Below are positions 3,001 to 59,266 of a stretch of 64,000 nt of DNA, in pieces. Source of the stretch: an uncultured bacterium (GTDB lineage Bacteria > Verrucomicrobiota > Kiritimatiellia > RFP12 > UBA1067). How positions within the stretch are numbered: position 1 is the first letter of the stretch; every line of letters starts with the position of its first letter. The notes beneath the pieces were generated by a model. It ran no database searches and was not told the DNA's origin. It was given only the letters and a program-made list of their open reading frames with translations. Both the position numbers and the translations under genes were made by a program. The DNA lies in contig CADCGZ010000001.1 in the NCBI GenBank assembly GCA_902801025.1, positions 11,091 to 75,090 of the forward strand. Reading direction: 5' to 3'.

Positions 3001-6000
3001 GGCTTCGTCCAGACTAAGGAAAACCAGACCGGCCCGATAAAGTACCACATCGAGGCCCTTGACGAGCAGACGGAGCCCTTCGCCGAATATGCCGCGACGA
3101 CGAACTACTTCAACTGCAAGGTGGACGATCCCAAGTTCCCCGTCAGCGAGTCGCTCGTGCCCGGCGCCGCCGACAGCTGGTCGACGCTCACGCTCGACGC
3201 CGTGACGGGATACGTCATGTTCCAGATAGACGATACGTCGAAGGCGCTGACGGTAGTCCACGCCGACTACCAGAACGCAAACGGCTGGAACGACGCACAC
3301 GATCGCGTGGGACAGGACAAGAACGGGAATTCGGTGTCCAAGATCTTCGTCGGCACTTCGACGACCAACGCATACAAGATTGGCGTCTCGCCGTCGAAGC
3401 AGACGTTCAGCGAGGACTTCTCGGCCTGGGGCACGATGCCGGCGACGAACGAAACGTGGACGTTCCCGACGGGACTTACTGACATTCAGTCGGAACACAT
3501 GTACGGCCGCAAGGCATACGAGACGTTTGCGAGCGAGACGAACGGGCTTTGGGACATTGGCCAGGGCATGTGGGTGGCAAAGAAATACATGATTGACAAG
3601 GGCGCCGACGCCGGGGTCGCATTGCAGATGGAGGGCAACGGCAAGGGCTTCTTCCAGTTCACCGACAAAGACAGGGCACCGCGGGGTCTTGAATCGATAT
3701 CGTTCAACGTACGTCTCGGCCAGTTCATAGAATTCGACGATTTCAACTACTATGACGGCGAGGTCAAGATGTCGCTCATGAACTATACGTTCTACACGAG
3801 GGCGGCCTTTGACACAAATTCGAACAAGGATTTCAGGGGCAATGGGTCGCTTTCGGTCATCGCCAACTACCTGCCGAACAAGGGATGCTACGAGGCGAGA
3901 TGGGAACAGATAGCCAACGAATCAAGTAGCAAGGGCGGTCAGCGCCTGTGCCTCTATCGCTGGAATGTGTCGCGCAACGGGAAGACTGAAAAGCTGTTGA
4001 CCGCATGGACCAATGTCAACACATTTGCACAGGCGAAGACAACGGCGTTTAGCAGCAGTGCAAAGTTCATGCCGTTCTACATTACCGTCTCGAACGACAC
4101 GGCAAACGCCTGCACATGGGTCGCGGCAGGTGTGTGCGACACCGCCATAGCGCCAAACGCTTCGTGGCAGTCGAGCAAGTGGTACATTGTCGCCTGCAGG
4201 GACAACGATTCTCAAAATCGCCTTGTCAGGGGCACATACGGCGTCCTGTCATCGAACTGCGACGGCGTCTTTATGGTGCCGCAGTATTCCCCGAACGTGG
4301 TTTTCAGCAAGGATGACGAATTGAAGCTGGCGGCAGGCAAGGCCGGGTTCTACACGCAGAAGACTCGTACGGGGCCGGCGGGACTTGTCATGCGCACGGA
4401 CGGCTTTGGATCGAAAGACGACGTAGATGTAAACTGGAACATAATTCCAGGAAGAATGAAGACGAGGAAAGAGGGAACGGACGACTATACAATAGGAATC
4501 GTAGCCGATCCGAACGTCCAGAACCTTGAGATATATCTCGGCACGGCCGGTCGCGCCGACTGGGGTGCAACACCGTACAAGACAATTGCCATTAATGGCT
4601 TCGGCGGCGCCACGACAAACATTGCCCTCTACACGACGAAGGACTGCTCCGTCAGGTTTGCGGTCGCCGGAACGGGTCGAGACATCAGAACCGACGTCGT
4701 CGTCGATACTGTGCAGCTAAGGCAGTGGCGCGGCGGGAACTGGGACGACGACGATGTGTGGCCGCTTCTCCCGGCGTGGGCGGACGCCCAGCACCGCAAC
4801 AAGCCGGTCGGGCACACGAACTTCGTCTTCACCTCGGCCTGGGTGACGAACCATACCGTGCTCCTTAGCGCCAAGCGCGCGAAGGTCGACGAGCCGTCGT
4901 CGATACGCTCGCCGCTGATGGACGGCTTCTCGGACGATAACACGGGCTACGTCCGCGGCAAGGGCCTTGGCATGATCTCCATCGGCTACGCGAACGCCCA
5001 GGAGAACGCCGTCCTGACGCTGCAGATTGCGACGAACGGCGTCGACTACACGTCGATCGGGACCTACGACCACCATCTCGAGTCCACCATCTGGACGCCG
5101 ATCACGAATTATAACTTCGGGGCGATGACGGAGACGCAGCGCAAGTCGGGCGTTCTCAATACCTACTTGGGGCTCCATGATCTCAAGGGCGCGATGCGCA
5201 TCATCGTGAGCACCAACGTAATCGCCAATGTCGCAGGCGAGACGAATCCTCAAAGATTCGGCGACGTGACGATAACCTCGATTTCCTGCAGCGACGAACC
5301 CGCCGTGGACGTCCACAGCTGGTGGGGCTGGAACCTGCGCACAGTAGGCGGTGACGAGGATAGCGAGAAGAAGATGTTCCTTGGCGACTTTTCGACGGAT
5401 GTCGGCGGGGCGGGCCTCTCGGTCGCGCTTAACAACTCGGTCGACGGCGATAACTGCCAAATTTCCAAGATCGACTACCGTGACCGCGAGTCGTACATCC
5501 AGCACAAGCCGTTCATCCAGACGCCGACGTTCACTTCGAACATCGTGGGCGAAGTCTCGTTCAAGGCCCGCAAGTACTCGTCGTCCGACCCGACGGCCAC
5601 GATCACGATCTACGGGTCGAGGAACGCCTCCGAGACGGACGAGGGCACGTGGGACAGGATCGACAACGGTGTGTTCATGGTGTCGAACGACTGGTACGAG
5701 ACCTACAGCTGCAAGATGGATTCGCGCTACAAGGCGTTCCGCCTCGCCGTCGCGGGCGTTGACGGCGTCATGGAGACCGCCGCAGGCGGCGGCAACGGGC
5801 TTCCCGACGGCGCCTACGACCCGCCGCCGCGCGTCCTCCTTGACGAAATATTCGTCAGCGAAGCCATAGACGCCAGGATGGGCTTCAAGAACGTCGGCTG
5901 CTTCAGGCACGACATGTCGGGGCTCGGCGAGGTGCCGAACGTCCCGAGCGCCGGCGAGCAGCCGCTCTGCGAGGAGTCGTGGGGCGTGCAGTGCGAAATC

Positions 6001-55521: not shown

Positions 55522-55745
55522 AACTCCGATCGTTTGGGCTCTCGCTACCGCTCCGCTGCTTCGCGAGGCCTCAACGACAATCCAGTGAGTGGAATTGTCT
55601 TTTGGGGCCGCCTTCGGCAGAGGAGGTCTGGAGGAAACCTCCTCCAGCTTAAAGACAATCAGCATCATTCAGCGAGAAACGAATGATGGGCGCGAAGCAA
55701 ATGTAATTCTGCGGAGCGGTAGCGAGAGCCCTGCTGATCGGAGTT
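55522..55745. repeat. long-stem hairpin element, copy A (224 bp)
   Basis: Left arm AACTCCGATCGTTTGGGCTCTCGCTACCGCTCCGCTGCTTCGCG (55522-55565). Right arm CGCGAAGCA..GCGGAGCGGTAGCGAGAGCCCTGCTGATCGGAGTT (55691-55745), including a perfect 21-bp pairing. The interior holds TTTTGGGG plus two hairpins (55600-55647). Confidence 0.9.
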
Positions 55746-55775
55746 TGTGAATCGATGAGAAACGCACTACAAGTA

Positions 55776-55784
55776 TGGTATAAT
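55776..55784 (+). promoter_or_regulatory. extended -10 promoter TGGTATAAT, 9 nt upstream of the parE-like ATG
   Basis: TATGGTATAATATCTGCTCTATG has the same geometry as the tkt promoter TATGGTATAATATACCCCCTATG. Confidence 0.5.
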
Positions 55785-55793
55785 ATCTGCTCT

Positions 55794-57607
55794 ATGGCTA
55801 CAGACTACGGTGATAAAAGCATAAAGACTCTCGATCCGGTGACGCACATCCGCCTGCGTCCCGGCATGTACGTCGGCGAACCCGGCACGGGCGCGATGTA
55901 CCATGACTGCATCTACATCCTGATGAAGGAAGTGATCGACAACGCGATCGACGCGGGCGAAGTGTCCGTGCGCGACTACGGGCGCGGCATTCCGCTTGGC
56001 AAGGTCGTCGACTGCGTCTCGCAGATGAATACCGGCGGCAAGTACGACAACGAGAACTACCAGTTCTCCGCCGGTATGAACGGCGTCGGCACGAAGGCCG
56101 TGAACGCGCTTTCCGAGTTCTTCGAGGTGCGCTCGTTCCGCGACGGCGAGTTCTCCGAGGCGTATTTCGAGGAAGGGCGACTAAAGTCCAAGAAGCGCGG
56201 CAAGCTCAAGACGAACGAGCATTCGGGAACGTACATCCGCTACAAGCCCGACCTCAAGGTTCTGAAGAAGTTCAAGGTGCGCGAGGAACACGTCCTCAGG
56301 CGCATGAAGATGTACTGCTACGTGAACGCGGGGCTGACGATAGTCCTGAACGGCCAGGAGATCTGCTCCGACCGCGGGCTTGCCGACCTCATCGCTGACG
56401 AGGCGCAGTTCGAGAAGCTCTACCAGCCGTTCCACGTGAAGACGAAGTCGCTCGAGATAATCTTCACGCACACCAACCGCTTCGGCGAGGAGTACCACAC
56501 GTTCGTGAACGGCCAGTACACGACCGACGGCGGCACGCACCTCACGGCGTTCAAGGAGGCGCTCACCAAGGCGCTCAACGACTACGACCCGAAGAAGAAG
56601 TTTGACGGCGACGACATCCGCGACGGTCTTCTCGGCGCGGTGTCGGTGAGGATCATGAACCCCGTCTTCGAGGGGCAGACGAAGATCAAGTTCGTGATGA
56701 ACGACATCAAGTCCGAGCTCGTCCAGCAGATGAAGAAGGAGATCGAGGCGGCGCTCCACCGCTCGCCCTCCGAAGCCGACAAGCTCATCTCCAAGGTCGA
56801 GGAGACGGGGAAGATACGCTCGCAGCTCAACACGATAAAGAAGCAGGCGCGCGAGAGGTCAAGCAGGCGCGCGAGAGGTCGCAGGCCGTCTCGGTGCGCG
56901 TTCCGCAGCTCAAGGACTGCAAGAACCACCTGAAGCTCGACAAGGTCGACAAGAAGACCGGGAAGGCCGAGGGCGAGGACACGATGATCTTCCTCACTGA
57001 GGGCCAGTCGGCGGGCGGCACGCTCGGCGGCGCGCGCGACGCGATGAACCAGGCGGTCTTCTTCCTGCGCGGCAAGTGCCTCAACACGTGCGGGCTCAAC
57101 AAGGACGTTCTCTACAAGAACGAGGAGTTTTTCAACCTCATCAAGACGCTCGACATCGAGGACACGCTCGAGCACCTTCGCTACGGGAAGATCATCTTCG
57201 CGACGGATGCCGATGTCGACGGACTCCACATCAGGATGCTCCTCACGACGTTCTTCATGCGCTTCTACCGCCAGCTCATCCTCGACGGGCGCGTCTTCAT
57301 CCTCGAAACGCCCCTCTTCCGCGTCAGGAACAAGAAGGAGCACTACTTCTGCTACACAGACGAGGAGCGCGAGGACGCGATAAAGAAGTGCGGGCGCGGC
57401 TGCGAGATCACGCGCTTCAAGGGACTTGGCGAGATCGACAAGGAGGACTTCAGGGGCTTCATCGGCGAGGAGATGCGCCTTACGCCCGTGACTTGCTCCG
57501 ACGACACAGACGTCGAGAAGACGATCAAGTTCTACATGGGCGCCAACACGCCCGAGCGCAAGGACTACATCATGGAGTCTCTCGTCTGCGACGCCGCCGA
57601 GTTCTGA
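55794..57607 (+). pseudogene. parE: type IIA topoisomerase subunit B (ParE/GyrB family, Bacteroidetes/PVC-type topo IV B-like) disrupted by a 20-bp tandem duplication
   Basis: The GHKL region (EVIDNAID, DYGRGIP, NTGGKYD, GMNGVGTKAVNALS) and transducer lie in frame 3 up to ~56880. Toprim (FLTEGQSAGG, ATDADVDGLHI) and the tail (RFKGLGEI) lie in frame 2 from 56894. Deleting one copy of 56841-56860 restores a single ~597-aa ORF that reads ..KKQARERSQAVSVRVPQLKDCKNH... Confidence 0.8.
56841..56880 (+). repeat. perfect 20-bp tandem duplication AAGCAGGCGCGCGAGAGGTC x2
   Basis: 56841-56860 is identical to 56861-56880. Twenty nt is +2 in reading frame, which is exactly the observed frame change. Confidence 0.97.
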
Positions 57608-57649
57608 TGCGGCGTTCCAAATTTCACCGCTCCACACGGAGTGATTTTG

Positions 57650-57658
57650 TGGTATAAT
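57650..57658 (+). promoter_or_regulatory. extended -10 promoter TGGTATAAT upstream of the low-GC orphan ORF
   Basis: TTGTGGTATAATAAC, 77 nt upstream of ATG 57735. Confidence 0.4.
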
Positions 57659-57734
57659 AACAATGTTCCATGCAGGGGATGTGGAATCGCACCCTATGCC
57701 CATAGCACGCCGTTGAAAAGAAAGGGGCTTTGAA

Positions 57735-57992
57735 ATGATGTACAAATTCATGGAATTGCCGGACAAGACGGAAATCACTCATTCCGACTTAAGAGATGAC
57801 GGAACCGTGAAGGTTTGCGTCGAACGTCCTATTGAGGGAGATTTTAAGACCGCGTATTGCACTATCCCCGGCTATGGGTGGTATGATGTCGAGGGATACT
57901 TGCCAGAAGAGCTTGCTGAGAATCGGAAAATCCTTGAATCCCTTTCGCATCTGATAGTCCGATTTGCTCGCAACGGAGGAGTGGCTTTTTGA
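57735..57992 (+). CDS. hypothetical small protein (85 aa) in a visibly AT-richer segment
   Basis: ATG preceded by AAAGGGG. The ORF has no long overlapping competitor. No family recognised. Confidence 0.5.
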   Translation: MMYKFMELPDKTEITHSDLRDDGTVKVCVERPIEGDFKTAYCTIPGYGWYDVEGYLPEELAENRKILESLSHLIVRFARNGGVAF

Positions 57993-58037
57993 TATAACGA
58001 TGCTGTTCCAATGACAACATTCTGTGGAGTGTGATCT

Positions 58038-58440
58038 TTGACATCGTTGGAGGTTCCCCAGTTTTTCGGGCATGAAAACGGCCACACCCCTGTAAACAAA
58101 GGGTGAAGTGGTGATTTTCATTTCGCGATAAGTGAAAACTCCTTTCCCGATTTTCTAAGCAACTCCGAGCGTTTGGGCTCCCGCTACCGCTCCGCAGCTT
58201 CGCGTCCCTCAACGACTGAATATGTGCAGGGTTAAGCGTTTGGGGATGCGACTGCGTCGCATAAATCGGCCGAGGGCCGCTATAAACACTATGAAAGGAG
58301 TCACTTGATCGTGGTTGAAAAGCGCGAAGCAGTGAAGCGGTAGCGGGAACCCTAACCATCGGAGTTTCTGAAATTCCGCGCGGGGTGTCGGAAAGGGGCG
58401 GCAGTACCTGCGAAAATTGGGGAACCTCCAATTGACATCG
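58038..58440. mobile_element. non-autonomous transposable element (MITE, 385 bp) with 19-bp terminal inverted repeats and a perfect 9-bp target-site duplication
   Basis: TSD TTGACATCG at 58038-58046 and 58432-58440. Left TIR TTGGAGGTTCCCCAGTTTT (58047-58065). The reverse complement of the right TIR (58413-58431) is TTGGAGGTTCCCCAATTTT, an 18/19 match. No transposase ORF lies inside. Confidence 0.75.
58161..58366. repeat. long-stem hairpin element, copy B (206 bp), nested inside the MITE
   Basis: Arms are ~90% identical to copy A (AACTCCGAGCGTTTGGGCTCCCGCTACCGCTCCGCAGCTTCGCG ... CGCGAAGCAGTGAAGCGGTAGCGGGAACCCTAACCATCGGAGTT). The interior holds TTTGGGG plus hairpins ATGCGACTGCGTCGCAT and CGGCCGAGGGCCG (58239-58279). 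Confidence 0.9.
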
Positions 58441-58481
58441 GCATTGCCACGAGGGGCGCGATTTGGTAGACTACGCGGAGA

Positions 58482-58570
<89 letters not shown>

Positions 58571-58593
58571 GACCTAAACTTCGCAAGTGTCTC

Positions 58594-58618
58594 GCGCAGA
58601 GGCGCAGAGAGCATAGAG
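58594..58618 (+). repeat. GCGCAGAG x2 plus a degenerate third unit directly upstream of rnc (CAGAG-orientation half element)
   Basis: GCGCAGAG GCGCAGAG AGCATAGAG. This is the reverse-complement orientation of the CTCTGCG array upstream of recA. Confidence 0.8.
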
Positions 58619-58624
58619 ACCATC

Positions 58625-59266
58625 ATGGAAATATTCGGGTACGCCTTCAAGAACGCCGCGCTTCTCGAAGAAGCGCTGACGACGCCGTCGTTCAAGATGA
58701 GCAGTCCGGATGCGGCCGACAACCAGCGGCTCGAATTCCTCGGCGACGCCGTTCTCGGCTTCATCGCGGCGGAGCGGCTCTACGGCTCCCTGCCCGACGC
58801 GCCGGAAGGCGTTCTCACCGTAAAGCGCACGCACATGGTCTCCTCTGCCGCGCTCTGCGAGGCGGCCGCGCGCCACGATCTCGCTCCTCGCCTCAGGCGC
58901 AACAAGGGCGCGGCGCCTCTCCCGGAAAACTCGAAGACTCTCGCCGACGCAGTTGAGGCCGTGATCGGCGCCGCATTCCTCGACGGCGGTCTCGACGCTG
59001 CGCGGACGATTTTCGACGCCTTGGATCTCGCCTCGATGGCCGACACTGCCGGTTTCAACCCCAAAGGCGACCTCCAGATCCGTGCGCAGGCCATGACTCC
59101 GCCGCGCCACCCCACCTACCAGCTCGTCAAGACCGAGGGCAGCGACCACGAGCCGGTCTTCACCGTGGAAGTCACCGTAGACGGTCTTGGAACCGCTTCC
59201 GCGTCGGCGCACAGCCACAAGGAAGCCGAGGCGCTTGCCGCCGCGAAACTCCTATCTATGGTATAA
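58625..59266 (+). CDS. rnc: ribonuclease III
   Basis: 213 aa. RNase III signature NQRLEFLGDAVL and ADAVEAVIGAAFLD. The C-terminal dsRBD-like segment ends KEAEALAAAKLL. Confidence 0.9.
   Translation: MEIFGYAFKNAALLEEALTTPSFKMSSPDAADNQRLEFLGDAVLGFIAAERLYGSLPDAPEGVLTVKRTHMVSSAALCEAAARHDLAPRLRRNKGAAPLPENSKTLADAVEAVIGAAFLDGGLDAARTIFDALDLASMADTAGFNPKGDLQIRAQAMTPPRHPTYQLVKTEGSDHEPVFTVEVTVDGLGTASASAHSHKEAEALAAAKLLSMV

Follow-up and report, generated by a model that had tools for sequence, protein, structure and literature searches.

A 385-bp element inserted beside a tRNA-Leu gene in the window (the whole 64,000-nt stretch of DNA analysed here) is almost certainly a non-autonomous derivative, or MITE, of an IS4-family insertion sequence (IS) common in gut and rumen Kiritimatiellae, its transposase gene having been replaced by a palindromic module termed element B. 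We directly observed the anatomy of the element, its sibling family, an autonomous partner, the target-site duplications and an unoccupied allele of the insertion site.

In the window sequence the junctions of the element read ...tctTTGACATCG / TTGGAGGTTCCCCAGTTTT ... AAAATTGGGGAACCTCCAA / TTGACATCGgca..., and the repeat finder agreed with the original prediction on both signatures of an insertion. The terminal inverted repeats (TIRs) are 19 nt long, match at 18 of 19 positions (95% complementary) and have 347 nt separating their arms, while the flanking direct repeat, i.e. the target-site duplication (TSD), is identical at 9 of 9 positions. Allowing for up to three mismatches, the 19-mer was found at only two sites in the 64-kb window, where 0.00 were expected from 100 shuffles. 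The 9-mer taken alone is unremarkable, with three copies in the window versus 0.57 expected, and its significance derives from the fact that the copies abut both TIRs, not from the copy count. The predicted 385-bp body without an open reading frame had to be corrected in one respect, as 385 bp is the length of the entire element with its repeats, below the ceiling of ~600 bp taken for a bacterial MITE; the lack of coding capacity was borne out, the window ORF list holding solely mechanical ORFs that cross the borders of the element or enter the tRNA. The GC content of the MITE is 53%, compared to 61% for the window.

Coordinates of the MITE, its parts and the adjacent tRNA-Leu gene in the window
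Feature	Position	Strand	Basis and remarks
Whole MITE, 385 bp including repeats	58047..58431	-	Its 58431 end corresponds to the left end of the IS, on the upstream side of the transposase gene
Left TSD copy TTGACATCG, 9 bp	58038..58046	.	Sequence and repeat finder; single copy in empty-site contig L150
Right TSD copy, 9 bp	58432..58440	.	Sequence and repeat finder
TIR TTGGAGGTTCCCCAGTTTT	58047..58065	+	Repeat finder
TIR, reads TTGGAGGTTCCCCAATTTT on the - strand	58413..58431	-	Repeat finder
IS-right-end part (downstream of the transposase gene), ~96 bp	58047..58142	-	Aligns locally with the final 96 bp of the IS at L040 5220-6817
IS-left-end-like part (upstream of the transposase gene), ~60 bp	58372..58431	-	Alignments to L031 and L078
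Element B, 206-bp palindromic module	58161..58366	-	Arms ~58161-58216 / 58311-58366, bounds ACTCCGA...TCGGAGT
Predicted sigma-70-type promoter of tRNA-Leu	58444..58472	+	Consensus scan: TTGCCA, 17 nt, TAGACT, TG before -10
tRNA-Leu(UAA), gene beside the insertion	58482..58570	+	Rfam, 55 bits

That the inverted and direct repeats arose by chance, mark the edges of a larger duplication or reflect an assembly artefact can practically be dismissed. The surplus of the 9-mer would suit such a reading, but the same shuffles leave no room for a chance TIR, hundreds of copies exist elsewhere, and self-comparison of the window revealed no larger duplication explaining the 9-mers, a longer duplicated block being excluded by the window sequence. 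Furthermore, five public bovine-gut runs, all independent, yielded contigs that span the junctions (both junctions in X1-X3 and X5, the left one only in X4); thus, the junctions are real and not products of assembly.

Further copies of the TIR, whose absence everywhere else had been named in advance as evidence against a transposed element, proved to be abundant. Scanning one genome per species for the pattern TTGGAGGTTCCCCARTTTT yielded matches in at least 117 loci, nearly all of them in MAGs from gut or rumen that carry the label Kiritimatiellae, Lentisphaerae or Verrucomicrobia, with at least ten matches in MAG202 alone. Among the matches listed, many lie within ~150 bp of a contig end, as is expected of a multi-copy repeat. 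BLAST detected homology with the window beyond the TIR in 63 loci among those listed, and the alignments pile up at 58047 (31 starts) and 58431 (20 ends), none of those with the listed repeat-bearing loci reaching into the flanks of the window element. Eight siblings of 384-393 bp among the listed loci align over the full length at 80-93% identity, and most of these carry a distinct duplication of 9-10 bp. Thirteen siblings were included in an alignment with the MITE. At loci retaining both ends, exact 9-bp TSDs, all of different sequence, were found at seven siblings (L020, L037, L046, L067, L072, L079, L080); TSDs of 10 bp occur at L043 and L099 as well as at the full-length IS L069, and a clean TSD is missing in some family members (L018, L025, L003 and the IS L040). 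Not every short lineage has the same interior: the 318-bp L043 contains short tandem repeats and no element B. Two loci (L003 6505-6961 and L046 7330-7786) hold 457-bp variants of the MITE with an extra 72-bp GC-rich insert in the left arm of element B. Matches in Cellulophaga (L002), Desulfobulbaceae (L029) and Solirubrobacterales (L068) were rejected as family members, with nothing homologous beyond the 19-mer; we take these three as chance, since we estimate ~9 random matches in 596 Gb.

The search for an autonomous IS sharing these TIRs, proposed together with the original prediction, was also successful. Full-length elements with the same TIRs were located at L040 5220-6817 (1598 bp, one ORF of 443 aa) and L069 5792-7376 (1585 bp, one ORF of 436 aa, 10-bp duplication), and across the elements of ~1.59 kb the transposase ranges from 426 to 443 aa. 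The transposase matches the Pfam family DDE_Tnp_1 (E = 1.7e-11, 44.7 bits versus a cut-off of 23), while it scores 25-43 bits against NCBIfam IS4_1 to IS4_4 (cut-offs 115-250) and far below the cut-off of every NCBIfam IS4 and IS701 model. At E <= 1e-5 we retrieved 964 homologues, typically of 426 aa and on contigs of 1.4-2.5 kb, for which the sole informative source name is ‘transposase [Kiritimatiellia]’, a few JGI entries being named ‘hypothetical protein’. As for the window itself, the predicted absence of a cognate transposase held, the cognate transposase, used as a tblastn query on a database of which the window formed part, having no match in the 64 kb.

De Palmenaer, Siguier and Mahillon (2008, PMC2266710) define the IS4 family by a catalytic triad spaced as D(60-110)D(100-150)E and by a Y(2)R(3)E(6)K motif, with the transposase encoded in one ORF and the target duplicated over roughly one turn of the helix. 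Twelve aligned transposases, with identities of 59-91% to the first sequence, all conserve D119/D122, D208 and E332, at spacings of 86-89 and 124 residues, and likewise the residues of Y325-x2-R328-x3-E332-x6-K339 (motif YITRWRVEDTIRHVK). The autonomous partner thus shows the catalytic triad spacing and YREK motif of the family, together with its single ORF and a duplication of 9-10 bp. Searches of PDB sequences, run with the single protein and again with a profile, gave no transposase match and just spurious annexin ones. An AlphaFold model (pLDDT 73, pTM 0.76) retrieved Tn5 transposase structures, 1mus, 1muh and 4dm0 among them, as its top five Foldseek matches (E = 1.6e-13 to 5.5e-13, TM 0.51-0.56), and the fold is therefore predicted to be Tn5-like. 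Judged by its spacing, YREK motif and predicted fold, the autonomous partner is an IS4-family IS. The IS701, ISH3 and IS1634 families lack the YREK motif and generate duplications of 4-6 bp (PMC2266710), so that the presence of the motif and the length of the duplications rule out membership in them. Among the families originally suggested (IS4/IS50, IS10 or IS903-like), IS4 is accordingly retained and the IS903 group of IS5 finds no support: the sole IS5 match, NF033579, is marginal (E = 0.0017, 17.9 bits versus a cut-off of 140), and the IS4 hallmarks are present.

Both ends of the MITE can be related to such an IS. BLAST aligned 58047-58138 with L040 6817-6726 at 89% identity, i.e. with the right end of the IS. 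The right-hand end of the MITE matches at ~75-80% the IS variants L031 and L078, in which the N-terminus of the transposase lies beside the left end; L040 and L069 have the 19-bp TIR alone in common with it. Shorter elements still carry transposase fragments (L064, 665 bp; L109, 824 bp; L010, 252 bp), and thus a series of deletion derivatives links the IS to the MITEs. Full-length transposase copies also share MAGs with orthologues of the locus studied here (L044 with L123, L048 with L121). The MITE would accordingly have retained ~96 bp of the IS right end and ~60 bp of its left end, including the TIRs, with the 206-bp palindrome substituting for the transposase gene. By analogy with IS4 enzymes of the Tn5/Tn10 type, transposase supplied by a full-length copy elsewhere in the genome would bind both TIRs and excise the MITE, which would then be inserted at a 9-bp staggered cut, repair of the cut producing the TTGACATCG duplication. 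From this analogy we infer both the mobilisation in trans by the parent transposase and the cut-and-paste chemistry.

The repeat finder recorded the inverted repeat of element B at 58158-58216 / 58311-58369 (59 nt, 78% complementary), and a scan placed its arm core in at least 109 loci of gut Kiritimatiellae. The 41 complete copies among the matches listed measure 160-480 bp, mostly 200-270 bp, and conservation falls sharply beyond the ACTCCGA...TCGGAGT bounds; most of these copies have no recognisable TIR-type repeats within 260 bp. One of the stand-alone copies lies in the window itself, at 55522-55745 (224 bp, -136 kcal/mol, z = -12), where it ends ~10 bp upstream of the gyrB/parE-like ORF and has no IS-type repeat within 260 bp. 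Rfam contains no family for element B at gathering or at permissive thresholds. A Hammerhead_HH10 match at 55589-55661 in the stand-alone copy (24.8 bits versus a gathering score of 75, E = 0.067) is probably due to chance.

A second, related MITE family of ~427 bp (L162 1327-1753, also L247, L172, L152 and L198), with the related repeats CTGGAGTTTACCCATTTTT and an 8-bp flanking repeat, has a central element B of a 260-bp subtype. Judged visually, the subterminal ~110 bp of this family look like the IS-right-end part of the window MITE. The original prediction had viewed the hairpin as nested in the MITE. Its presence there was confirmed, and the idea of a private insertion was not: in all close siblings, which reside in other genomes, element B occupies the same position with the same junctions and is therefore a family-wide module, not an insertion nested at this locus, and it recurs in the second MITE family. 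It could still be argued that element B is itself mobile or recombining and entered a pre-existing MITE, either here or in an ancestor of the lineage. The copies without recognisable repeats, the one at 55522-55745 included, would fit true nesting of this kind, as would the sharp drop in conservation outside the bounds, the absence of element B from other MITE lineages of the same IS (L043, L010, L064) and a metagenome word depth that is greater for its arms than for the MITE ends. The siblings refute the locus-specific version, however, and no duplication flanks element B either inside the MITE or in the stand-alone copies. L113, moreover, is an internal deletion of element B and not a B-free ancestor. 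An ancestral insertion is possible, with capture by recombination or deletion also possible, and we consider true nesting unlikely on the whole, if by no means far-fetched.

We also entertained the more speculative view that element B is a functional, separately evolving module, acting as a structured RNA or a DNA cruciform, spread through Kiritimatiellae genomes by at least two related MITE families and occurring alone as well. In DNA metagenomes its arms reach 15-40 times the baseline word depth, and the value is greater in two libraries labelled metatranscriptomic. In the runs X26, X27 and X28, labelled metatranscriptomic, the word depth over 58141-58368 is ~500 on the arms versus ~4 on adjoining sequence, where DNA carry-over is possible. 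In the stem, 112 G.U mismatches compare with 103 A.C mismatches; the figures thus reveal no strand asymmetry and are uninformative on selection at the RNA level. Such a function for element B seems to us rather improbable. If real, it could help to pair both TIRs for transposition or act on neighbouring genes.

The favoured reading of the element as a MITE of an IS4-family IS predicts a site without it, and an empty-site allele with a single TTGACATCG was one of the checks suggested at the outset. We searched metagenome contigs for an exact match to the predicted junction GATCTTTGACATCGGCATTGCC and found it in one contig, L150. Window positions 57978-58046 align with 1749-1817 of this contig (95.7%) and positions 58432-58837 with 1809-2215 (93.9%), and the two alignments overlap by exactly one TTGACATCG. 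By this alignment L150 represents the unoccupied allele; its flanks are just 94-96% identical to the window and it is therefore taken to come from a relative, i.e. another strain. With this allele and the negative self-comparison, the counter-scenario raised beforehand, in which no empty site exists and the 9-mers belong to a larger duplication, does not apply. Empty-site joints were not found in eight public runs, which hold the insertion or diverge at 57980.

Orthologous loci were located via the neighbouring RNase III gene (92-98% amino-acid identity) in L118-L124 and L128. At all eight, homology with the window ends at 57607-57611, the stop of the gyrB/parE-like gene, and resumes exactly at 58440/58441, the intervening unrelated sequence measuring from 28 bp (L122) to 2.9 kb. 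These closer orthologues yield no empty site because unrelated sequence has replaced 57612-58439. Among close relatives, 57612-58037 is a hypervariable interval, separating the topoisomerase gene from the tRNA-Leu promoter by 28 bp in L122 and by 0.9-2.9 kb with unrelated ORFs at other loci; one of these ORFs, in L118, encodes a DUF1796 papain-like peptidase. In the window, an 85-aa ORF without a Pfam match occupies 57735-57992 of the interval. A perfect 20-bp tandem duplication at 56841-56880 (aagcaggcgcgcgagaggtc, twice), missing in the orthologue L118, shifts the frame of the gyrB/parE-like gene and so splits it into ORFs at 55755-56933 and 56894-57607. Near 55952, a further 51 bp are deleted in frame compared with L118. 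The split may reflect a true pseudogene or a mistake in the assembly.

On the other side of the MITE, the tRNA-Leu gene is separated by 41 nt from the right TSD copy and by 50 nt from the last base of the element, which amends the distance of 42 bp originally given. An 89-nt contig in an RNA library matches exactly 58482-58570. The predicted promoter begins 3 bp past the TSD, the insertion being placed 3 bp upstream of the predicted -35 hexamer, and the predicted core promoter is therefore intact. A conserved block, GGCATTGCCACGAGG, beginning with GGCATTGCC (58441) directly after the duplication, is present in all orthologues. With this arrangement, the insertion may be neutral for tRNA-Leu. 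IS4 transposase promoters normally point inward from the left end, and on the IS-left-end side of the MITE the inward direction faces away from the tRNA. A short repeat, AGGCAAACCAGCAyAGG...AACGCGAAGC..., was noticed in orthologues just upstream of the topoisomerase gene and of the tRNA-Leu promoter (L118 ~930-1000; L120 ~330-420 and 3300-3357; L124 and L128 upstream of tRNA-Leu); it is missing from the window at the corresponding places.

The proximity of the gene raises the question of whether the stretch is a host-encoded structured RNA or a regulatory leader of tRNA-Leu in which the repeats are incidental. The whole MITE folds very stably (-183 kcal/mol, z = -8.3), libraries labelled metatranscriptomic are rich in the arms of element B, and the left MITE junction is spanned by one cDNA contig (58021-58183), for which DNA carry-over is possible. 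The eight orthologous loci and the empty-site contig nevertheless retain the tRNA with its promoter while lacking the element, and the copies elsewhere occur in unrelated contexts with duplications of their own. Rfam returned no match for 58047-58431 at gathering score and no family even at E up to 5, the stem lacks strand asymmetry, and two of the RNA runs may contain DNA. Together, these observations make a host RNA or leader very improbable, and we return to the reading of the stretch as a MITE of the IS4-family element.

Taken as a whole, uncultured gut Kiritimatiellae contain a complete and consistent IS/MITE system. In addition to the autonomous IS4-family element, it includes intermediates formed by deletion, several lineages of MITEs and an unoccupied site. 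In practical terms, the system explains contig breaks in Kiritimatiellae MAGs, offers a strain-level polymorphic marker beside tRNA-Leu and makes available a candidate Tn5-like transposase for which the element ends are defined. The MITE itself is ordinary in kind and leaves the concept of MITE function unchanged. Our literature search for IS and MITEs described from Kiritimatiellae retrieved nothing relevant.

Within the IS4 family, the models that have been studied are IS50/Tn5 and IS10/Tn10. Like this family, the partner has one transposase ORF, D..D..E spacing, the YREK motif, 9-10-bp duplications and a predicted Tn5-transposase fold. Its 5'-NT ends are those of the IS10, IS50 and ISPepr1 subgroups (PMC2266710), and by our own reading of Table 1 in PMC2266710 its end signature agrees with the IS50 pattern in part, at 5-6 of 7 positions. 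Resemblance to the IS50 and IS10 subgroups lies in the 5'-(C/T)T ends and the 9-bp duplication, whereas the length of 1585-1598 bp slightly exceeds the size ranges of both, and the enzyme of the partner has no detectable sequence match to Tn5 transposase or to any PDB chain.

Among non-autonomous elements, our MITE can be compared with two groups. The MIC231 and other IS231-derived cassettes and MITEs of Bacillus cereus have IS4-family ends with foreign DNA replacing the transposase gene; MIC231 is larger, contains passenger genes and was experimentally demonstrated to be moved in trans by the parent transposase. The element in the window likewise combines IS4-family ends with foreign DNA, its passenger being a 206-bp non-coding palindrome and its mobilisation in trans being presumed. 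The classical bacterial MITEs and palindromic repeats (Correia/NEMIS, RUP, ERIC, Nezha) are small, with TIRs and a duplication, high copy number, intergenic positions near promoters and strong folding. Our element has the same traits and differs from them in its parent family. Furthermore, unlike in those repeats, the parent IS is directly identified here, and the folding core is separable and common to a second MITE family.
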